From a virus (lineage: Duplodnaviria > Heunggongvirae > Uroviricota > Caudoviricetes): a DNA stretch of 49,704 bases. Position numbers and translations under genes: made by a program. This document shows positions 13,444 through 39,067 of this stretch, piece after piece (position 1 is the stretch's first letter; every line of letters starts with the position of its first letter). The DNA is taken from IMG/VR virus record IMGVR_UViG_2703718837_000001; one strand, given 5' to 3'. A model generated the notes under the pieces. The model was not told the origin of the DNA and ran no database searches. It worked only from the letters and a program-made list of their open reading frames with translations.

Positions 13444-13872
13444 TTATAAGCCGCGCAGTGATTTCGGCGCGGCAAACGTCTCAATCATCTTTTCCGCGAT
13501 TGCCGACCAGGTGTGACACTGGACCTTTTCAGCATTTTTCACGCGATCAACGCGAGCAATAACCTCATCCCAATCAATCCGCGACTTGATAACCATATGG
13601 TTCACCAAATCCAGGCGATCCGGCGGAAGGCAATCGGGCGGCGTTAATATCAACGCTCCACACATTGCCGCCTCAAGAACAGTTAATCCAAGGCTTTCGG
13701 GATGCGTAACGATAAAAACGTCACTCTTACGCAATTCAGCTGCAAATTCGGTTGCTGGTACCGGCGTCCGTCTGTATGGGGTTACCGATATATTCCCCGG
13801 ATCAATGGTAATCAATCCGTCATCGGTCAACGTTCTGGCCTCATACGGAACGGTCAGACTCTGAAGGTTCAT
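13444..13872 (-). pseudogene. 3' remnant of a GT-B (GT1/GT4-type) glycosyltransferase gene
   Basis: The 142-aa ORF contains only the C-terminal donor-binding region (VFIVTHPESLGLTVLEAAMCGALILTP). The same frame stays open upstream with no start, through the tRNA fragment to about 14072, so the gene is truncated at a recombination junction. Confidence 0.6.
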
Positions 13873-14168: not shown

Positions 14169-15104
14169 TTAGAATGGTACATTGTCATCCATCTCAAAGT
14201 CTGGGGGTGCAACAGATATTCGATGAATTTCATTTCTTTCCATATCCATCATTTGATCCTCCTGCTCCCCATCATCGTACCACGATGAAGTGTCTACCTC
14301 TAAAGCTTCAGATATGACTTCAAATGTTTCAGGAGAGTCTAAGTGAGAAGCCATGTGCAACGTGAACGGATAACTTTCTTCTAGGCTAACCCCATCATTC
14401 CTAGAACCATATTCTTGAGTAACATAGACAGTACCGGAAGCATATATATTGATGTACTCATCATCAATCGACGTGATTCCAAATTCTTCGACTTCAGTGT
14501 AATCTACATACGCATGATTCGCGATAGTCACTAGGTTTTCAGGCATAGAGCTTACCGCCGTGTCAATAACTGCATTTCTAATTTTATCTTCGAGAGTACG
14601 AATTAATTCATCTCTACAAATATGTATACCATTTAGTATTTCTGTAGCGATCTGCAGTATTTGTTTGGCCTTCAGGAAGAACTCTTGAGGTGATGGATGC
14701 ATATATTTCTCTGTTATATGCGTATATTTATTTAAGAAGAAATAAAGCTTAAGCATCTCATCTATTCTTTCATTCGACTCCTCCAGGAACTCTTCCCCCA
14801 AGTACGCATCTGAAATTTTAGCTTGAGAACAGTATTTTAAACGCTGTCTTCTAGATATTTCGTAATGTTCATGTTCTCTCTTATACCACGATGCTTGTAA
14901 TAATTTATCATTCGGAGATTTTTTCTCGATAATATGCTTTATTAGCTCGCGAATTGAAAATGCAAAGTTATGAAAACGTAATGGGTTGCCATGTGATGCA
15001 TAATTTCGCAAACAAGCTGTGAATAATTCTTTTTCAAAATCAGCTTCGAGGTGACTCATAAAATCATTCACAAAATCAAGAGATTGTAGTTTTTTAAGCT
15101 TCAT
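14169..15104 (-). CDS. Orphan 311-aa protein: helical N-domain, beta-rich middle, hyper-acidic linker and an SSB-C-terminal-tip-like end (..PPDFEMDDNVPF)
   Basis: Single long ORF in a very AT-rich segment. The C-terminus is compared from memory with the E. coli SSB tail ..EPPMDFDDDIPF. RNYASH (aa 33-38) resembles an Rx4H motif. No other family recognised. Confidence 0.7.
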   Translation of the reverse strand: MKLKKLQSLDFVNDFMSHLEADFEKELFTACLRNYASHGNPLRFHNFAFSIRELIKHIIEKKSPNDKLLQASWYKREHEHYEISRRQRLKYCSQAKISDAYLGEEFLEESNERIDEMLKLYFFLNKYTHITEKYMHPSPQEFFLKAKQILQIATEILNGIHICRDELIRTLEDKIRNAVIDTAVSSMPENLVTIANHAYVDYTEVEEFGITSIDDEYINIYASGTVYVTQEYGSRNDGVSLEESYPFTLHMASHLDSPETFEVISEALEVDTSSWYDDGEQEDQMMDMERNEIHRISVAPPDFEMDDNVPF

Positions 15105-15927
15105 CGTGTAACCTTATATTCCTGTCTCAGATTTAATATCGGATTCAACCGAATCCTCTTCTTCTAAATTTTAAAGTCGTGTAACATTACAAAATATTCA
15201 AGGTTAAATTGAACATATATCATTGTTATTTAGATGTAAGTATATCTGAGCACTCGTTACAATACCAGAATATTACCATCATTCATCATAAAGTAACTAG
15301 CGAAGGTGTGGCGGAAACGTAAGTAAGTTGTTCTCCAGGTAATTCAATACCTGTTCTTTCTAAATAGCTGCGCGGAATAGTGATCTACTTTCGTCCGCCC
15401 TTGCAGGGCGAGACATTAGGTCGGCGTCCCCTACCTGACCGTGCTGCATCAGGCTTGAGTGTGTTGCCCATATGCAACATACCACACATCAGTAAACGGC
15501 AAGTGTAGTAGTATTAGGCGCAGAAATTTAGTACAGCCCAGAATGCGCCGTAACAATCAATAAACCACTACACCCGCGCCCTGGCTGCAATTCGGTAACA
15601 GGGGATCCCCCCTAGCTTCCAGCGTGATTAGCGCCTTCAGCATGACGGAATATACCCGTAAATACGAGGAACTCTACCCAAAGGCTGTTAAGAACCGGCT
15701 GTTACGCTGAATGAAAAAGGACGTAACAGGTAAGGACGCTGACCAGAAGATGGCCCCTTCTCGTTCATCTGGTTAATCAAACCAGCGCCCTTGCCTGTTA
15801 TGCCTCCTCGTTCCCTAATACACAGACGGGGACAACCCCGTGGTGTCAGGCTTCTTAGGCCGCAACCATCATCAGATCATCGTTTGCATTTACTTTAATG
15901 GTCAGTTTGTGACTGCTCCCCGCCCTG

Positions 15928-17221
15928 TCGGGCGAGGCTTCCCACTTCTCAGGCCACTACCGTCTGTGCGACGGATTTACGCTGGCCTCCATGGGCGGAG
16001 ACGACGAGTCCCGCCGCCTGTAGTTCCAGTATTCCTTTTTGCCGGATGTTGAGTGCCGCATTGATATCGCGGTCGTGCTCTGCTCCACATTCAGGGCATC
16101 GCCAGATGCGTTTATGAAGCGGCATTTCCGGCATTTTGTAACCACAACAATAGCAGGCTTTCGAACTGGCAAACCACTGGTCGAGTTTTACTAGGTGAAC
16201 GCCTTTTTCCGCTGCCTTGTACTCCAGCTTTGTGATGAAGCTATGCCAGCCTGCATCACCTATCGCTCTTGCCAGATTGTGGTTTTTCATCATGTTGGCT
16301 GTTTTCAGCGTCTCGACAATTACCGCTTGGTTTTCGTCAACAATTGCACGAGAGAGCTTGTGTTGAAAATCAGCACGGGCATTAGCCACCCGTTCGTGTA
16401 ACGCTGCCAGACGGATTGTGGCCTTTTTACGATTCGCGCTTCCCTTTTGCTTGCGGGATAAGGCTTTTTGTTTGCGTCGCAGATTACGGCTGGCATTGAT
16501 GAGATGGCGGGGATTTGCAATTTTTACCCCATCAGACTTGATGGCAAAGTGCGATAATCCCATATCTAGGCCAGTAACTGTTGATATCAACGTGGGTTTT
16601 GCCGGAGCTTCCATGCCATCATCACAGAGAATTGAAGCATAGTATTTCCCCGTTGCTGAACAGGTGATAGTGATGCTTTTCAGCTTTCCATGAAGTTCAC
16701 GGTGAAGGCGTGCTTCTATTAGGGACAGTTTTGGGATTTTGATGGCATTATCCAGCACCTTAATCCCGACACAGTGATAGCTCGATTGTTTTCCGTGTTT
16801 ACGTTTAAACGTCGGGAACCGCGCTTTCAGCTTCGGATTAAAAAAGTTGGAAAATGCCACATCAAGATTAATTACCGCCTGTTGCAACGCAATAGAATCA
16901 TATTCTTTAAGCCATCCATACCTGCGGGATTTCTTTGCCACTGCAAGCAGCGGTTTCAGATCGTTACGCGGACTTAAATTTACTCCATGTCGCTGGTAAG
17001 CATGTTTTTTGATGTGAAGAGCTTTGTTGTACGCAAAGCGCACTGCACCGAACTGGGCATTGAGGTACTCTGCCTGTTCTGGTGTCGGGTAAATGCGTAC
17101 TTTTGTTGCTCTTAACATAGTCACCGCTCATTGATACAGGCTTTTTATGCTAACACCGTAATGATTTTTTTAAAGCCCTGTTGGCTTTTCGCCTTATATA
17201 CCCGCCCGCATTAGGCGAGGG
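15928..17221 (-). mobile_element. Minimal IS200/IS605-type (IS1341-like, tnpB-only) element bounded by similar imperfect palindromes; true ends uncertain
   Basis: ccccgccc-tgtc-gggcgagg (15928-15947, just past the tnpB stop) and acccgccc-gcatta-ggcgaggg (17200-17221, upstream of tnpB) share CCGCCC-N4-6-GGCGAGG in the same orientation. A third copy lies at 15394-15413. Confidence 0.45.
15949..17124 (-). CDS. tnpB: TnpB (IS200/IS605-family OrfB, RNA-guided RuvC nuclease), apparently intact
   Basis: 391 aa. N-terminal KVRIYPTPEQ...FGAVRFAYN (OrfB_IS605 helix), RuvC-I GLDMG, RuvC-II VIVETL, zinc ribbon CYCCG...CPECG, RuvC-III HDRDINAALNI. No adjacent tnpA. Confidence 0.9.
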   Translation of the reverse strand: MTMLRATKVRIYPTPEQAEYLNAQFGAVRFAYNKALHIKKHAYQRHGVNLSPRNDLKPLLAVAKKSRRYGWLKEYDSIALQQAVINLDVAFSNFFNPKLKARFPTFKRKHGKQSSYHCVGIKVLDNAIKIPKLSLIEARLHRELHGKLKSITITCSATGKYYASILCDDGMEAPAKPTLISTVTGLDMGLSHFAIKSDGVKIANPRHLINASRNLRRKQKALSRKQKGSANRKKATIRLAALHERVANARADFQHKLSRAIVDENQAVIVETLKTANMMKNHNLARAIGDAGWHSFITKLEYKAAEKGVHLVKLDQWFASSKACYCCGYKMPEMPLHKRIWRCPECGAEHDRDINAALNIRQKGILELQAAGLVVSAHGGQRKSVAQTVVA

Positions 17222-17273
17222 TTTACGGCGTTTTTCGCTAAACCGCCGCAAAGTCGCTAACCATGACGAAACC

Positions 17274-17302
17274 TCTGAAAAAAATGCCCACCCGAAGATG
17301 GG
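17274..17302 (-). terminator. Rho-independent terminator downstream of dmt
   Basis: Minus strand reads GCCCA-tcttcggg-TGGGC followed by T7. Confidence 0.7.
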
Positions 17303-17488
17303 CAAACTGGATGGAAGCTCGTTACGCACTTCGGAGTTGCCTCTTAGGCGCATGGTCAACCTGGCAACTCGGTGGTTTGTCTGGGAGGACTAGGCCCAGC
17401 CATGCTTACCGCCGCGCCTGTCGCGGCTAACAGCTAAATCGCTCTAAAAATCACGATTCATTGATTCGATATTACACTAATAAATTTA

Positions 17489-20400
17489 TTATAGCAATAT
17501 TGCTATAACGTCATGAGCAACACCACGAGTGTCTCCCTTACAAGACACAGAACGTCTGGCAAAAAGAGGTTCCACTCTGAAGCCACTGTCCTGATAAAGT
17601 TCTCTGATGTTTGGCGCGCCACTGTTAGTAATGAGAACCTTTGCACCTCGGCGATGAGCATCCGTCAACAGAGACACCAGGCGTTTTTGCTCTTCAAACT
17701 TAAAGTCATGACCGGAATAGTTCGTGAACCCCTCTGTATTGGGGAGCGGTTCATACGGCGGATCGCAAAAGATGACATCTCCTTCTCCGGCAGCTTCAAT
17801 CACCGCTGCAAAATCACCGCATACAAACTCAGACCGCCCTTCCGCACCGAGGAAGGCTTCCATCTCCTGTAATGGAAAATGCGTAGACTTATACTTCCCA
17901 TACCCGACATTGAACTCACCGGCCTGGTTGTAGCGCGTCAATCCATTAAAACAATGTCGGTTCAGGAACAAAAACGCCGCTGCGCGATGTAAATCATCAT
18001 AGACTTGTTTGTTAAACGCATTCCGTACTGCCAGGAATCCCTCCTGGGTGTTGTAGTCCAGGAAGAAACGATGTGCCAGAGTGATAAGTGAATGCGCCTC
18101 GCGTTGCAGAGTCTTGTAAAAGTTAATCAGGTCAGCATTCACATCATTTAGCAGATTTTCCTGATATCCGGCATTCATGAAGACAGCTCCGCCACCAACG
18201 AAAGGTTCAATCAGGCGCTTCCCTTCTGGCAAATAGCGAAAGATTTGTTCCAGAACACCAAATTTTCCACCAGCCCATTTGAATATGGGCCGTTCGAATT
18301 CTGCCGCTGGTTTAACCTTTCGCTCTTTTGTTTCACTCCCTTCTTTTTGCCGACATGCAGCCTTAGTAATCCGATCGCCAATCCAGCGCATTACTGGTAT
18401 TGCCATACTATTTCCGATCGCTTTGTAACGCGGTCCGTCAGCTGCAAGCATCGCGGCCTCTTCTTCGTTTAAATCAGGATAGTTATTGCGAAGGTATGCT
18501 AGTTCATCTGAAGAAACTTTTTTACGCTTTCCCGTAGGGATCAACGTATGCCAATCAGGAAAACCTTGCAGCCTTTCACATTCGACAGGGGTAAGACGGC
18601 GCATTCTATCGTCGCCGAGCAATACAATTGGTGCTTCATGGTTACATGTCAAAGTTGGTGCCGAATTATCGGTTTTTATCTCAGCCCCTCCTTGCCCATG
18701 TGCCATGGCAATTATGTTTGTATCATCGCAAGATCTGATAGCGATGTTTGAAGTATATCTGGTAGTTTCCTTCCCCTCGCCTCTGCTCGGCGCAATATCC
18801 CGGCGCTCGCCTTCGAACTCAAAAAGTACCGTTGCGGGATCGAGGTCTGTTCGAGCACTTGCGACAACAAACACGCGTCGGCGTCGTTGTGCCACTCCGA
18901 AGTATTGGGCATCAAGGATTCTCCAGGCCACCTTTCGCTGCGGTCCATAAATACAACCACACTGCGGCCACTTTGGAGCATGGCAACCGGTTTTGCCATC
19001 CCACCGCCAGAACGCGTTACTTTTTCCTGATTCAGGTCGATCACCTGGTTCAAATGGCGCATCTTCTCCAGCCAATCCGGCAAGGAAACATCCGAAGGCG
19101 TTATCTGCCGATGACAAGACCCCTGGGACATTTTCCCAGACGATAACGGCTGGTTTGAGAAATGACTCAGCCCGTTTGTCGTCAATTGCATTTGCAAGCT
19201 CCACATACTTTAAAGTTAGCGCGCCACGCTCATCATCAAGCCCACCACGTAATCCAGCGATACTGAATGCCTGACAGTTATGGACCACCGCACCATTGAG
19301 GATATAGGAATGATCACCTTCGACTTCTATGTTGTATACAGTATCTAGGCCTACCGATTTAAACTCTTTGACTGTTCGTAAAAGCATTCCATGAGCCAAT
19401 CTTGATTTACGTGACAATTTCTGCGGGCAGATTGTTACCTGATAATAATTCCGTTGATTTACCACGCGATCCTCAATCACTTTTTTGGGCTCAACTTCAA
19501 TAAAGCTGACCGAAGAAACATAACCACAAGTCTGTGACAACTCCGCAACGCCCCAAGCAAGCGCAGGACTAACACTATTAATTCTAAATCCCGCTTTACC
19601 ACTTGGTGTCCCATCAGTATCAAGATAGCCTTGTAAAAACACATGACGCAATGGATGCGACATCACCCATGCAGGGATACGCTTAGCATGGCTTAACTCG
19701 CCAAAATGTTCATTAAGCCAATTGGCATAACACGTATCATTCAAGGTTACTTTGATGCTCCCTCGGATTTCGCTTGCCACGGAAAATATGTTTTCTGGTA
19801 TGCGGCAATGAAACTTTCTCAATTTCTGGCAATTTATGCCAAAAACAACCGCCTTCTTAGATTTACCTCTCCATCTCCTAATATATCCATCGCCAACATA
19901 AGCGCCCGCAAGATACATAGCCTGTTCTTCAGACAAGAACCGAGAACAAATATCTGGAGATGCAATATTGAAATTAGTTAGAGCACACCATTGATATCCC
20001 GGCATATCACATGCTGCTCGCCATTCCGGTTCAGACAACAACTCTCTCTTAAAATATGTGCCATTTTTCCGGGTGTTTTGGGCTTTCCACCGAACCGCCA
20101 GGAAGGGATGGTCATTGGTTGTTCTTATACCTAAAGGCTGCCCAACGGCATTAAGTAACCCCGTATTAGCTATTTTTGAACCAACTCTTTTTACTTGTTG
20201 TAACCGCCCGAGATGACTGACTACGTAATCGCCAGGGCAAACATCTTCTATTGGTTTATAACCATTTTTACAAAGAACCATATGCCCCGCGGTAAAACAT
20301 GGTGTCCCTCCCACCAGCACATCAGGGGCTTCAATTTCTCCGGCCTGGACTTTTTGGGCGAGTTTTGTCATGTCGCCAAGGTTCGCGACATGGGGCCAGC

Positions 20401-20530
20401 GGTGCGCAAGAACGGCAGAGGGAAAAGGCTCGATTTCAGCAAACCACGCCGGACGCATACCCAACGGTTCCCATGCAATGCTCGCGGCTTCAATTCCACT
20501 GCAAACAGATCCATAGCACAGCTCTCTCAC
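17489..20530 (-). CDS. dmt: Bifunctional DNA methyltransferase Dmt (N-terminal C5-cytosine MTase plus C-terminal Dam-like N6-adenine MTase) interrupted by an intein
   Basis: C5 motifs: I ([11 protein letters not shown]), IV (GGTP/CQAFS, split), VI (ENVPG), VIII (QRRRRVF), X (GNSMAIPV). Dam part: [21 protein letters not shown]. 1013 aa including the 341-aa insertion. Confidence 0.92.
19277..20299 (-). other. Intein (Hint domain plus LAGLIDADG homing endonuclease), Dmt residues 78-418
   Basis: Starts with CFTAGHMV (block A); TNDHPF (block B); [11 protein letters not shown] and [10 protein letters not shown] (two LAGLIDADG motifs); [21 protein letters not shown] followed by Cys (blocks F/G plus the +1 nucleophile). 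Excision recreates GGTPCQAFS. Confidence 0.9.
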
Positions 20531-38753: not shown

Positions 38754-38809
38754 AGTTACGGCCTCACAATCAGGTTTAACAACCTGCTACCCGCTGCTAA
38801 ACAGGTGGC

Positions 38810-38890
38810 AGGACGTGACGGGGTTAGCAGACTGGCGATTGTGAAACCAGCAGGCCGAAGCCTCCCCATCACGCCCCACCATAATTTGGG
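38810..38890 (-). ncRNA. c4: c4 antisense repressor RNA (approximate bounds)
   Basis: Stem GTGACGGGG/CCCCATCAC (38815-38871, plus-strand letters) enclosing GTTAGCAG (38823-30) and AGCAGG (38849-54). These are complementary to CCTGCT (38783-88) and GCTGCTAAAC (38793-802) just upstream of icd, and to a second GCTGCTAAAC at 38962-71. Confidence 0.5.
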
Positions 38891-39067
38891 CGTAACGCGG
38901 TTTTACGGACACAAAAATACCGCAATATCGGATATCTGCGGCTGTCCGCACAATCATTCAGGCTGCTAAACCCGGTCGCAGAATTTGCTACGACGGCGAA
39001 ACTATAAGCCTGAACGATTAAAAGGTCAATATGATGCGAAAAGATAGCATTCGCGACTTAAAAATAC

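Follow-up and report, generated by a model that had tools for sequence, protein, structure and literature searches.

The locus lies in a 49,704-nucleotide stretch of Caudoviricetes DNA, which was analysed whole and is called the window here. It contains an insertion sequence, a nuclease gene and the DNA between them:

14169-15104, minus strand: pP_pnuc nuclease gene, 311 aa
15105-15191, minus strand: AT-rich leader of the downstream pP_pnuc nuclease gene
15192-15372, minus strand: remnant of a P2-type tyrosine integrase, C-terminal part (pseudogene)
15357-15531, minus strand: conserved non-coding block of about 185 nt, which includes the third palindrome (15395-15412)
15909-17237, minus strand: element of the ISEc46 family (IS200/IS605), 1329 bp, tnpB only
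15920-15936: right-end hairpin of the IS
15949-17124 by ORF (15949-17118 in RefSeq), minus strand: tnpB
17202-17219: left-end hairpin of the IS

The product of tnpB contains the domains OrfB_IS605, Cas12f1-like TNB and HTH_OrfB_IS605. The element lacks tnpA, is inserted after TTTAG and is flanked by no target duplication. The neighbouring 311-aa gene, which an earlier sequence-only reading of the locus had taken for an orphan, carries the nuclease domains pP_pnuc_1 and pP_pnuc_2. The intervening DNA was described there as ORF-free and hairpin-dense. The former is correct in essence, with ORFs of 41 and 42 aa only inside the stretch, although a 70-aa GTG ORF at 15840-16052 (plus strand) spans the end of tnpB. 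Folding by minimum free energy is above chance, but moderately only: for 15574-15908 the z-score, which takes no account of pseudoknots, is -1.9 on the minus strand and -2.7 on the plus strand, and 15350-15573 has a z-score of -2.0. At values of only about -2, thermodynamics by itself would have missed the region. Each of the six hairpins listed in that reading was located in the sequence:

15462-15479: TGTTGC/GCAACA
15517-15548: GGCGCA/TGCGCC
15701-15727: GTTACG/CGTAAC
15742-15772: ACCAGAAGATG/CATCTGGT
15769-15785: CTGGTT/AACCAG
15826-15841: ACGGGG/CCCCGT

The top-size inverted repeat pairs 15724-15741 with 15783-15800 (18 nt, 89% complementary). Three palindromes of the form CCGCCC-N-GGCGAG in the same orientation had also been noted, with coordinates a few bases off, and are indeed present. 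A search of the 49.7-kb window for CCGCCC-N3-7-GGCGAG gives exactly three sites, always on the plus strand (15395-15412, 15920-15936 and 17202-17219), whereas 0.01 occurrences are expected by chance and none of 100 shuffles reached three. This excess, and the position of the stretch directly 3' of tnpB on the tnpB strand, would fit a stretch that prolongs the right end or the omega-RNA of the TnpB element, or that is a PATE-like rider on it with palindromes as its limits. The origin of the DNA makes this very improbable. Homology between IS copies, compared as had been proposed, stops at 15909. In the three copies used (L129, L130 and L131; two lie on plasmids, and one is a chromosomal ISEc46 copy that has tnpA) the right end reads ...GGGCGGGGAGCAGTCAC (...GCAGTCAC), which corresponds to window position 15909, and these independent copies have identical right and left termini with unrelated DNA beyond. 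An IS ending at about 15900 with an unconserved remainder had been foreseen as the outcome that would count against a special role of the stretch; the IS does stop there, but the remainder is strongly conserved. The whole stretch is uninterrupted in the IS-free plasmid pE189-1, as is 15574-15908 in phage P1. Both are continuous over the insertion point (GCGGCGGTTTGG/AAACTGACC in pE189-1, GCGGCGGTTTAG/AAACTGACC in P1), so that the IS-free alleles already refute an IS-centred origin, and the distribution of the stretch tracks the P1 backbone. Homologues of the third palindrome in Salmonella SGI4 and a Citrobacter plasmid (TTGCCC..GGGCTG and TTGCCC..AGACTG) depart from the IS-end pattern; at a chance expectation of 0.01, that copy is not fully explained.

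Alignment with the IS-free alleles shows the stretch to be native DNA of a P1-like phage-plasmid and not IS DNA. By the rules of the IS200/IS605 family, the first 16-20 nt or so past the end, from 15908 downwards, would serve as the omega-RNA guide of this copy, and the putative guide, AAACUGACCAUUAAAG, agrees with the uninterrupted P1 allele. The likeness to a TnpB omega-RNA or IS right end is confined to these nucleotides past 15909, which occupy the guide position, whereas the remaining stretch is absent from other IS copies and older than the insertion. 'Empty' DNA beside a TnpB gene need not be IS DNA.

By its matches, the part nearest the nuclease gene (15105-15573) is unrelated mosaic DNA, composed of the integrase remnant and the 185-nt block. 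The remnant matches the 3' end of intact integrase genes at 74-79% DNA identity, and RefSeq annotates a pseudogene at 15260-15372 in identical plasmids. The block of about 185 nt is common to SGI4 and the Citrobacter plasmid p6_A. One weak promoter-like site (15112..15083) is found in the leader of the nuclease gene. That the stretch might be a 5' UTR or regulatory RNA of the 311-aa gene is suggested by its location directly upstream on the same strand; it is highly unlikely, given that the gene-adjacent DNA is this mosaic sequence and that in P1 and other phages tRNAs or other genes come after the conserved part. The independent structured RNA envisaged in the sequence-only reading is thus borne out as a conserved structured RNA, but one which belongs to the upstream ban-operon leader and not to the neighbouring gene. 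The features of this leader are:

15574-15707, minus strand: P1 ban-leader module with closing stem GCGUAACAG (15699-15707)/CUGUUACCG (15593-15601)
15724-15800, minus strand: 'bracket' stem (15783-15800 paired to 15724-15741) around an insert of 41 nt that contains two small hairpins
17285-17304, minus strand: hairpin UGCCCAUCUUCGGGUGGGCA resembling an intrinsic terminator, with U7 after it, where the P1 'dicF-like region' ends
17305-17430, minus strand: counterpart of the annotated 'dicF-like region' of the P1 ban leader
17469-17500, no strand assigned: palindromic site, counterpart of the divalent P1 C1 operator (Op72) with the promoters P1ban/P2ban; overlaps the dmt stop codon

On the basis of homology, 15574-15908 and 17238-17500 are the C1-controlled leader of the ban operon of P1-like phage-plasmids. 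The leader is 95.8% identical to P1 68672-69292 over 620 nt, P1 homology stops at about 15574, and synteny is preserved (dmt, C1 operator/Pban, dicF-like region, stretch). The order of elements is dmt stop, Op72/Pban, dicF-like region, terminator, structured RNAs and tRNA genes, the last in P1. The P1 annotation holds dmt, Op72/Pban and the dicF-like region and is blank from there to trnA. The 'bracket' stem matches CAACAGGUAAGAGCA...UGCUCUUUCCGUUG stems which lie 3' of the tag module described below in many phages. Comparison with the uninterrupted alleles shows that the tnpB-only IS landed within the non-coding leader of the C1-repressed ban operon and split a conserved RNA module, the pieces of which are:

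17238-17276, minus strand: 5' 'clamp' domain AGAGGUUUCGUCAUGGUUAGCGACUUUGCGGCGGUUUAG, antisense to E. coli tmRNA nt 68-81 and 87-104
15888-15908, minus strand: linker AAACUGACCAUUAAAGUAAAU, ending in a resume-codon context (A-U-A at -6 to -4)
15855-15887, minus strand: tag frame GCA AAC GAT GAT CTG ATG ATG GTT GCG GCC TAA, encoding ANDDLMMVAA and stop
15801-15854, minus strand: remains of two H-type pseudoknots of the tag module

In its general form the module consists of (a) a 5' domain of about 40 nt, colinear antisense to host tmRNA nt 68-81 and 87-106, (b) a linker of about 20 nt with AUAAAU at its end, (c) a GCA-started ORF of 10 codons plus stop, ending in Ala-Ala (Val-Ala in three lineages), and (d) two H-type pseudoknots 3' of the tag with strong covariation. 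All 18 distinct tag sequences have 10 codons and a stop, the final two codons exist in four alleles each, which differ at the wobble position, and the A-U-A resume context is conserved. The GCA frame has a pN/pS ratio of 0.36, against 0.96 and 1.69 for the two alternative frames. These patterns indicate that the tag ORF is under purifying selection at the codon level. Reading it as a small protein was rejected: AUG and Shine-Dalgarno sequences are missing, an in-frame UAG lies eight codons upstream, and pN/pS is near 1 in the overlapping AUG frame. In pseudoknot A, 96.2% of cells are paired and both sides change in 7 of 9 pairs; its covariation score of 0.713 compares with 0.309 in shuffles, was reached by 0 of 500 shuffles, and stands against at most 0.24 in slid controls. 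Pseudoknot B has at least five compensatory arm variants per helix.

The tag region resembles tmRNA (ssrA; RF00023, permuted RF01849-51, RF04321) in several respects: the resume codon GCA follows A-U-A at -6 to -4, the 10-codon tag starts with AND(D/N) (ANE in HK620) and ends in Ala-Ala or Val-Ala plus stop, the stop codon usually lies within a hairpin loop, and H-type pseudoknots follow 3' of the tag. In the Rfam scan, which had been suggested earlier for the stretch, tmRNA families were the only matches in every homologue, at 15-34 bits, tag-centred and all below threshold. The best-scoring model was tmRNA_permuted (RF04321), with top scores of 22.9-33.5 bits against a threshold of 47; RF00023, RF01849 and RF01850 scored lower. 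However, the module differs from tmRNA in having neither acceptor stem, T-arm, G3-U70 nor CCA, in having two pseudoknots instead of four (PK1 is absent), and in a 5' end that is antisense to tmRNA and not tRNA-like. No Rfam tmRNA match extends over a tRNA-like domain, ARAGORN found no tmRNA in the window, pE189-1, P1 or five other phages, and a custom scan for a T-arm with complementary acceptor strand gave matches at chance level only. A complete one-piece or permuted tmRNA was rejected, as no tRNA-like domain was found by ARAGORN, Rfam or the custom search. Without such a domain classical tmRNA function in cis is impossible, and lacking acceptor stem, T-arm and CCA the module is not expected to be alanylated. 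Three further candidates for parts of a tRNA-like domain were discarded. The P1 dicF-like region (CUGGG-N9-CCCAG-ACAAACC-ACC) as an acceptor piece can pair with the candidate 5' strand at only 5 of 7 positions, has no G-U pair, has a 9-nt loop and is missing from most carriers; the hairpin CUGGUUCGAUUAACCAG of pE189-1 as a T-arm has a loop C that is not kept in P1 or the window; and the 5' domain as a tRNA-like 5' half (GGGUUUU-C-GUCAUGGUUAGCGAC versus GGGGCUG-A-UUCUGGAUUCGAC) is by BLAST and alignment the reverse complement of ssrA nt 68-106.

The module could alternatively be the coding piece of a true split phage tmRNA, with the acceptor (tRNA-like) piece elsewhere in each phage genome. It is often located beside tRNA genes or tRNA-like fragments, among them, in ECBP1, an odd tRNA-like gene that lies about 110 nt upstream, and inserts bearing a T-arm in Magnus, L035 and L026. 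This alternative is improbable: no partner with a complementary acceptor strand, G3-U70 or CCA was found, the window is free of any tRNA-like gene, and the P1 stretch examined holds three ordinary tRNAs and nothing else (ARAGORN). A split tmRNA would also leave the antisense match to host tmRNA unexplained, and a survey of RefSeq viruses found ssrA in mycobacteriophages only (PMC4131195). Two-piece permuted tmRNAs of Alphaproteobacteria, Betaproteobacteria and Cyanobacteria do resemble the module in that the message RNA is separate from (part of) the tRNA-like domain and base-paired to it. However, their pieces come from one permuted gene and are joined via acceptor and P2 helices, whereas the proposed partner of the module is the complete host tmRNA, paired at its message region. 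The mycobacteriophage DS6A, like the carriers of the module, has a partial tmRNA, consisting of the tRNA-like domain (TLD) only and thought to interfere with host trans-translation (PMC4131195, PMC11915505). The two are mirror images, DS6A keeping the tRNA-like domain without a tag and the module a tag without the tRNA-like domain.

Among 50,697 phage records, 711 match the module, 184 of them at a coverage of 80% or more; it also has matches in 754 of 5426 E. coli genomes. Among the matches it is annotated as 'hypothetical protein' or not at all. Carriers include P1, P7, D6, HK620, Ackermannviridae, Felixounavirus, Gamaleyavirus, Drexlerviridae and other phages, and belong to at least six unrelated virus families, strictly lytic phages included. 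In HK620 the module is placed between pR'/qut and the late terminator, and in Akira and Felix-O1-like phages consensus sigma-70 promoters adjoin its 5' end. Of the tmRNA surveys, that of 2014 lists mycobacteriophage and phage G tmRNAs only, and that of 2025 lists 79 phage sequences without names. The tag strings occur in no paper, and nothing relevant on tmRNA-like, ssrA-like or antisense-to-tmRNA phage RNAs was found, in the open-access full text; a P1vir transcriptome preprint does not treat the region. The module is apparently a conserved, widespread phage RNA that has so far gone undescribed.

The copy in the window carries a 35-nt deletion (junction at about 15834/15835) which merges both pseudoknots into the hairpin 15826-15841, a change of CGGGG to CGAGG in pseudoknot B at about 15808, and, in clamp block A, two substituted positions when compared with P1, and the IS separates its clamp from its tag template. 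Judged by these lesions it is a decaying copy and probably non-functional. Some phages integrate at ssrA, and such phages handle ssrA DNA; with the evident decay of the window's own copy, this would suit a module that is a functionless piece of host ssrA which phages have taken up and rearranged. The compensatory pseudoknot changes, the purifying selection on the tag, the modules' own promoters and the occurrence in 711 phage records of at least six unrelated families, strictly lytic phages among them, make such an inert relic improbable.

The 5' domain faces the PK1 3' strand, the resume codon and tag codons 1-6 of host tmRNA. In local alignments to the reverse complement of E. coli ssrA, the domains of 8 of 12 lineages score above 300 of 300 shuffles; the sense control is no better than shuffles. 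Predicted duplexes with ssrA nt 60-115 have energies of -28 to -36 kcal/mol in the nine lineages with block C (z -3.1 to -6.6) and of about -15 kcal/mol in L035, pAh6-C and the FelixO1-like type. Paired with the element's own message, the 5' domains reach -9 to -22 kcal/mol. The predicted pairing is colinear and conserved and exceeds both shuffles and self-pairing. The paired host positions are identical across 13 lineages; the gap at nt 80-86 is filled by the Felix-O1-like, L035 and pAh6-C types, in most lineages the pairing is interrupted by mismatches, G-G at host G74 and A-A near A93, block A/B of Ackermannviridae contains an insertion of 6 nt, and blocks B and C are divergent in pAh6-C (Aeromonas) and L035. 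A scan of 185,579 genomes for exact 18-mers, aimed at co-variation of the clamp with host tmRNAs, gave matches at chance level only. The clamp could also be what evolution has left of an inverted duplication of ssrA and not a working antisense sequence. It is similar to phage antisense sRNAs such as DicF and P1 C4 (the latter present in the window at 38801-38886) in that short blocks complementary to an RNA target are invariant across lineages while the spacers vary. It is dissimilar in its putative target, tmRNA, and in its fusion to pseudoknots and a tag template that can be translated.

Taken together, the locus is a native P1-like leader split by an IS, and the module, present here as a decayed copy, is probably a tag-template RNA that clamps tmRNA and substitutes or blocks the host tag. 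We infer that the RNA clamps the host tmRNA and replaces or blocks its tag template. The module RNA would be transcribed together with the phage leader, and the clamp would bind the message region of host tmRNA, which is single-stranded, and would mask its resume codon. As the clamp would tether the phage resume signal and tag ORF beside host PK1, ribosomes that host Ala-tmRNA/SmpB has rescued would continue translation on the phage template, and ANDENYALAA would be swapped for a phage tag without the SspB-binding ENY motif. The minimum effect would be that host tagging is blocked. We know of no precedent for a template held by base pairing alone. Accordance with a pure antisense inhibitor, which blocks tmRNA or triggers its cleavage by RNase III and whose tag ORF and pseudoknots form an untranslated scaffold or decoy (S1, SmpB, RNase R), is seen in the strong, conserved complementarity to the tmRNA message and the missing tRNA-like domain. 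Such an inhibitor is nevertheless rather unlikely in view of the codon-level signature of the tag, namely a fixed length of 10 codons, Ala-Ala codons that vary at the wobble position only, a pN/pS of 0.36 confined to the GCA frame, and the conserved A-U-A resume context. The full form of the clamped-template reading is more tentative, a possibility short of an even chance: many enterobacterial phages, lytic and temperate, and P1-type phage-plasmids may encode a 'tmRNA hijacker', with a clamp of about 35 nt and its own resume codon and 10-codon tag, that places a phage tag onto stalled proteins via host Ala-tmRNA/SmpB.

If true, the hijacker would form a two-piece tmRNA that is a hybrid of host and phage, and the proteolytic fate of rescued proteins would be altered during infection. 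If the module works as proposed, a single small RNA reprograms or disables the main bacterial pathway of ribosome rescue and protein tagging; no such mechanism for a phage RNA was found in the open-access full-text literature. According to old observations, several phages depend on or interact with tmRNA, for which the module would then account. It would represent a third kind of phage-borne tmRNA relative, tag-only, beside the complete and TLD-only forms, and a natural design for redirecting tmRNA tagging. The carriers include the classical laboratory phages P1 and HK620 and hundreds of phages that are therapeutic candidates, in which the locus has been left blank.

The ORF-free DNA at 15105-15948 of the window, between tnpB and a 311-aa gene, is far from empty: it holds a damaged copy of a phage RNA that is widespread, lacks annotation and, by the logic of its sequence, points to the host tmRNA. 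On sequence grounds the replicon is a P1-like phage-plasmid, since the P1 immunity RNAs C4 and a1/b1, found at 38801-39007, are joined by tail and baseplate genes, a dmt-rdgC block and identity to ~95-130-kb E. coli plasmids. All features under discussion lie on the minus strand.

Features of the window (coordinates, strand, description)
14169-15104, minus, ORF of the 311-aa gene
~15192-15372, minus, 3'-end remnant of a P2-type integrase gene, from sequence match
15357-15531, minus, ~185-nt non-coding block, ~80% to Salmonella SGI4 and a Citrobacter plasmid
15724-15741 with 15783-15800, minus, bracket stem enclosing the ACCAGAAGATG/CATCTGGT and CTGGTT/AACCAG hairpins
15855-15887, minus, tag ORF, ANDDLMMVAA and stop, from a permissive Rfam match and the reading frame
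15909-17237, minus, IS element, 1329 bp, bounded by comparison with three other copies
15949-17124, minus, tnpB ORF
17489-20530, minus, dmt ORF
38801-38886, minus, C4 antisense RNA, 69.6 bits, P1 immI region
38955-39007, minus, a1/b1 targets of C4, 54.6 bits, P1 immI region

The 311-aa "orphan" gene carries pP_pnuc_1 (E 1.8e-34) and pP_pnuc_2 (E 2.1e-33) domains, those of a predicted pPIWI-associated nuclease. No Argonaute/PIWI gene was noted adjoining it, and on this phage-plasmid the nuclease may act on its own, in defence or anti-defence. The Dmt methyltransferase has 1013 aa (P1 gene: 2265 nt, ~754 codons), with Hint and LAGLIDADG domains between the N-terminus and the C5/N6 methylase domains; the arrangement suggests an intein bearing a homing endonuclease. 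In the IS-free plasmid relative pE189-1 the dmt allele is longer still (3288 nt). A truncated glycosyltransferase at 13444-13872 (minus strand) is a frameshifted pseudogene according to the annotation of the identical plasmids. Together with the integrase scrap, this gene marks the point where tail genes give way to the ban leader as a dumping ground for foreign DNA.

A sequence-only reading had linked the stretch to the IS through an IS-end palindrome. Its observations were reproduced: CCGCCC-N3-7-GGCGAG occurs three times (15395-15412, 15920-15936, 17202-17219; 0.01 expected), all six named hairpins are present, and the only ORFs within the stretch are of 41-42 aa, plus one of 70 aa running into tnpB. 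The strongest inverted repeat pairs 15724-15741 with 15783-15800. The folding energy is only ~2 standard deviations better than that of shuffles, and by this measure alone the stretch would be unremarkable. An IS-only query matched 841 E. coli records, and three copies in unrelated contexts were compared (one on a 281-kb plasmid, one on an IncI1 plasmid, the third a chromosomal copy of ISEc46 that has tnpA). The right end of all three reads ...GCCTCGCCCGACAGGGCGGGGAGCAGTCAC, with complete divergence beyond. The left end, C(G/A)AAAA..CCCTCGCC, is common to the window copy and the two plasmid copies; the chromosomal copy has tnpA on its left side, and similarity starts only ~70 nt in. This comparison, which the earlier reading had proposed, ends the element at 15909, where the copies diverge completely. 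In pE189-1, 15105-15908 is fused directly to 17238 onwards, GCGGCGGTTTGG joining AAACTGACC. From the copies' ends and this junction it follows that the IS stops at about 15900, as the first half of the reading's own refuting condition had foreseen; its IS-related interpretation is refuted, the IS-free allele itself carrying 15105-15908. A target duplication is absent from the window copy, which is inserted after TTTAG; the plasmid copies follow AATCAG, and these flanks suggest T(T/C)AG as the motif. By IS200/IS605 rules, the omega-RNA guide of the window tnpB copy is predicted to be AAACUGACCAUUAAAG..., from 15888-15908. The same sequence adjoins TTTAG in every IS-free P1-type ban leader, so TnpB could cleave IS-free P1 phages and plasmids, whether incoming or co-resident; such cutting, if real, would give homing or exclusion.

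The flanking DNA (15574-15908 and 17238-17500) matches phage P1 68672-69292 at ~96%. P1 is annotated there, in order, with the dmt stop, the divalent C1 operator Op72 with P1ban/P2ban, a "dicF-like region", ~450 nt without annotation, trnA, trnT and later ban; the match and this order identify the C1-controlled ban operon leader. A terminator-like hairpin at 17285-17304 closes the dicF-like part. Similarity to P1 stops at ~15574, and 15105-15573 is different DNA with two recognisable pieces, the integrase remnant and the ~185-nt block. Relatives of the block (L132 2501-2674, L133 2501-2675) lie near ArdC, DUF1281 and methylase genes in Salmonella SGI4 and near integrase and Fic genes in a Citrobacter plasmid island. 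It has several hairpins, with some differences apparently compensatory, and no Rfam match was found for 15357-15531. The third palindrome falls inside this block and is also present in IS-free pE189-1, and its homologues (TTGCCC-TGCAA-GGGCTG, TTGCCC-TGCAA-AGACTG) depart from the IS-end pattern; the resemblance of the third palindrome to the IS ends is therefore not owed to this IS. The palindrome was a red herring, and it is slightly uncomfortable that the chance expectation of 0.01 leaves it not fully explained.

A permissive Rfam scan, also among the checks proposed earlier, gave one notable match, 29.9 bits to tmRNA_permuted at 15855-15946 (minus strand). It rests on UAAAU GCA AAC GAU GAU CUG AUG AUG GUU GCG GCC UAA, encoding ANDDLMMVAA where the E. 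coli tmRNA tag is ANDENYALAA. The pE189-1 tag differs at two bases, both synonymous. Several features support decoding of the tag. Among 26 aligned elements there are 18 different tag sequences, every one of 10 codons and a stop; they include ANDDLMMVAA, ANDDVVLMAA, ANDDLMLMAA, ANDDVILMAA, ANDNEFKVAA, ANDDLMLAAA, ANDNVFLAVA, ANDDQFLAVA and, in HK620, ANEEMYLAVA. The wobble position of each of the last two codons has four alleles, and pN/pS is 0.36 in the GCA frame versus 0.96 and 1.69 in the others. The ORF lacks both an AUG and a Shine-Dalgarno sequence, and eight codons 5' of it the frame is closed by a UAG. Bases -6 to -4 of GCA are A-U-A; E. coli tmRNA has the same bases there, and its U85 and A86 influence which frame is chosen. 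The stop codon was usually seen within a small hairpin loop, and two H-type pseudoknots follow. In pseudoknot A (alignment A3), 96.2% of cells are paired, both sides have changed in 7 of 9 pairs, and covariation is 0.713 against 0.309 when shuffled (0/500 reach it; slid controls, 0.10-0.24). In pseudoknot B, compensatory arms include CGCAGA/TCTGTG, CGGAGT/ACTCTG, CATGGA/TCCGTG, CGCATT/GATGTG and CGTACT/GGTATG for helix one, and TCCCCG/CGGGGA, GCCCTG/CAGGGC, GCCCAC/GTGGGC and CCTCA/TGAGG for the other helix. Two more hairpin-bounded modules of the P1 leader lie 3' of the pseudoknots: the bracket stem and a domain closed by 15593-15601/15699-15707. The bracket stem recurs 3' of the tag module in many phages (CAACAGGUAAGAGCA...UGCUCUUUCCGUUG), with compensatory variants in P1 (GGUAAGGGCG/CGUCCUUUCC) and L035 (GGUAAGGCAA/UUGCCUUUCC) and widely differing inserts, some with T-arm-like hairpins. 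The pattern CAACAGGUAAGAGCAUU, a variable 40-90-nt insert and AGUGCUCUUUCCGUUGUGG(UGAA) is seen in tRNA regions of unrelated phages (L007 ~1650-1830, L008 ~1660-1740, L024, L035, L058; window 15724-15800), with some inserts tRNA-like and bearing good T-arms; it is reminiscent of small-RNA cassettes or of a system of processing stems.

Distant BLAST finds the module in phages of very different kinds, each time where nothing is annotated and in many cases beside tRNA genes. Carriers include Ackermannviridae (Magnus, phiEa2809), Gamaleyavirus (ECBP1, Bp4), Drexlerviridae (CS01), Akira, lambdoid HK620, Felix-O1-like phages, and P1, P7 and D6. A 182-nt Akira query matched 711 of 50,697 phage records (184 at >=80% of query length), and an L058 query matched 754 of 5426 complete E. 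coli genomes, with no feature or a "hypothetical protein" beneath. The window holds one copy. In P1 the module lies downstream of Pban. In HK620 (L224 1490-1670) it falls after pR'/qut and before the late terminator tQ, within a short leader transcript; the equivalent lambda leader is made constitutively, so HK620 lysogens may express the module. In lytic phages the module has promoters of its own, and in Akira and Felix-O1-like phages a consensus sigma-70 promoter stands directly 5' of it, from which the RNA is expected to start at about AGUUUUCG. This genomic context fits a leader RNA.

The 5' domain was considered as half of a tRNA-like domain; this was rejected on comparison with E. coli K-12 ssrA, which was recognised in L135 from its canonical ends and lies immediately 5' of CP4-57/intA. 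The domain consists of three blocks and reads as the reverse complement of ssrA nt 68-106.

Blocks of the 5' domain (clamp) and their ssrA complements
Block A, UAGUUUUCGUC, complementary to nt 96-106 (GACGAAAACUA, tag codons 3-6)
Block B, GUU(A)GCGAC, complementary to nt 87-95 (GUCGCAAAC, resume codon within)
Block C, UUUGCGG(G/C)UUUUUA, complementary to nt 68-81 (PK1 3' strand and A-rich linker)

Local alignment to the ssrA reverse complement exceeded 300 of 300 shuffles for P1, Akira, CS01, Magnus, L024, L058, L070 and the Felix-O1-like type; sense-strand scores equalled the shuffle mean. Predicted duplexes with ssrA nt 60-115 reach -28 to -36 kcal/mol (z -3.1 to -6.6) in the nine block-C lineages and about -15 kcal/mol in L035, the Aeromonas phage lineage pAh6-C and the Felix-O1-like type; against the message of their own element the same domains are predicted to reach no more than -9 to -22 kcal/mol. 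The same tmRNA positions are covered throughout a 13-lineage map, and L035, pAh6-C and Felix-O1-like types also cover nt 80-86. The blocks are nearly invariant and the spacers vary in length and sequence, as a fixed target in trans predicts and in contrast to the co-varying pseudoknot stems.

The window copy, by comparison of alleles, shows four kinds of damage. The IS separates clamp (...GGUUUAG, 17238-17276) from linker (AAACUGACC..., 15908 downwards), precisely at their boundary. Block A reads AGAGGUUUCGUC versus P1 AGGGUUUUCGUC. A 35-nt deletion (P1 ATGAGTCGTCCCCCGTCAAAAAATCGACCGCAGAG) has cost pseudoknot A its 3' half and pseudoknot B its 5' arm, thereby giving the ACGGGG..CCCCGT hairpin at 15826-15841 noticed in the sequence-only reading. 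CGGGG has become CGAGG in pseudoknot B. The tag ORF is intact. The IS-bearing allele occurs in 17 E. coli records at >=80% of query.

ARAGORN runs on the window, pE189-1, P1 and five other phages yielded no tmRNA, no Rfam match to the module homologues covers a tRNA-like domain, and a custom scan for a T-arm and then a complementary acceptor strand gave chance-level matches only. At the module locus every homologue is sub-threshold to tmRNA families and matches no other family. Since the module fails the defining test, that of a tRNA-like domain, it is not classed as a tmRNA, though it is tmRNA-derived. The RNA of mycobacteriophage DS6A has only the tRNA-like domain, and the module is its mirror image; two-piece tmRNAs differ in that the proposed partner here is the complete host tmRNA. 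An exhaustive search of RefSeq viruses reported ssrA in mycobacteriophages only (PMC4131195), and published ssrA-search pipelines evidently missed the module. The P1 GenBank record annotates only the "dicF-like region". No description of the module was found in the open-access literature (an older remark in the P1 genome paper is possible), nor did any of five tag strings, or any relevant tmRNA-like or antisense RNA of phages, turn up there; the module is absent from tmRNA surveys and databases. In ECBP1 (L005 1310-1381), ~110 nt upstream of the module, lies an odd tRNA-like gene. An acceptor stem and a good T-arm are present, one long arm takes the place of the D and anticodon arms, and CCA is missing. 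The ARAGORN call is tRNA-Ala(CGC), and the Rfam score is just 26 bits, to tRNA-Sec. The gene may encode a partner RNA, but complementarity between it and the module was not detected. Many IMG/VR viral contigs (e.g. L014, L029, L045, L052) have tmRNA genes that look complete, starting for example with GGGG(C/U)GAAAUAGGAUCGAC, followed by UAAAU-GCA-AAC-GA, the resume context of the enterobacterial module; they could help trace its origin.

The module consists of a clamp, a linker with the resume context, a tag ORF, a stop and two pseudoknots, and is conserved and complementary to tmRNA; this anatomy and the relationship to tmRNA are held with high confidence. That the clamp acts as an antisense is somewhat favoured. 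A tag swap is put forward tentatively. The module RNA would pair with the single-stranded message region of host tmRNA and mask the host resume codon; the surrogate template would thereby be tethered beside PK1, and rescue by host Ala-tmRNA/SmpB would continue on the phage tag. At the clamp-bound positions phage tags read GAU GAU... versus host GAC GAA AAC UAC, a difference that would avoid self-pairing of the module. Pure inhibition of tmRNA or its cleavage by RNase III, a simpler variant, agrees with the clamp but does not fit the codon-level signature of the tag ORF. The tag-swap model would explain jointly the missing tRNA-like domain, the peptide-level selection and phage tags unlike the host tag exactly at the clamp site. 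In ssrA-tag recognition, SspB uses the ENY motif. The phage tags are without ENY and mostly keep a C-terminal Ala-Ala, so the fate of the tagged proteins could change.
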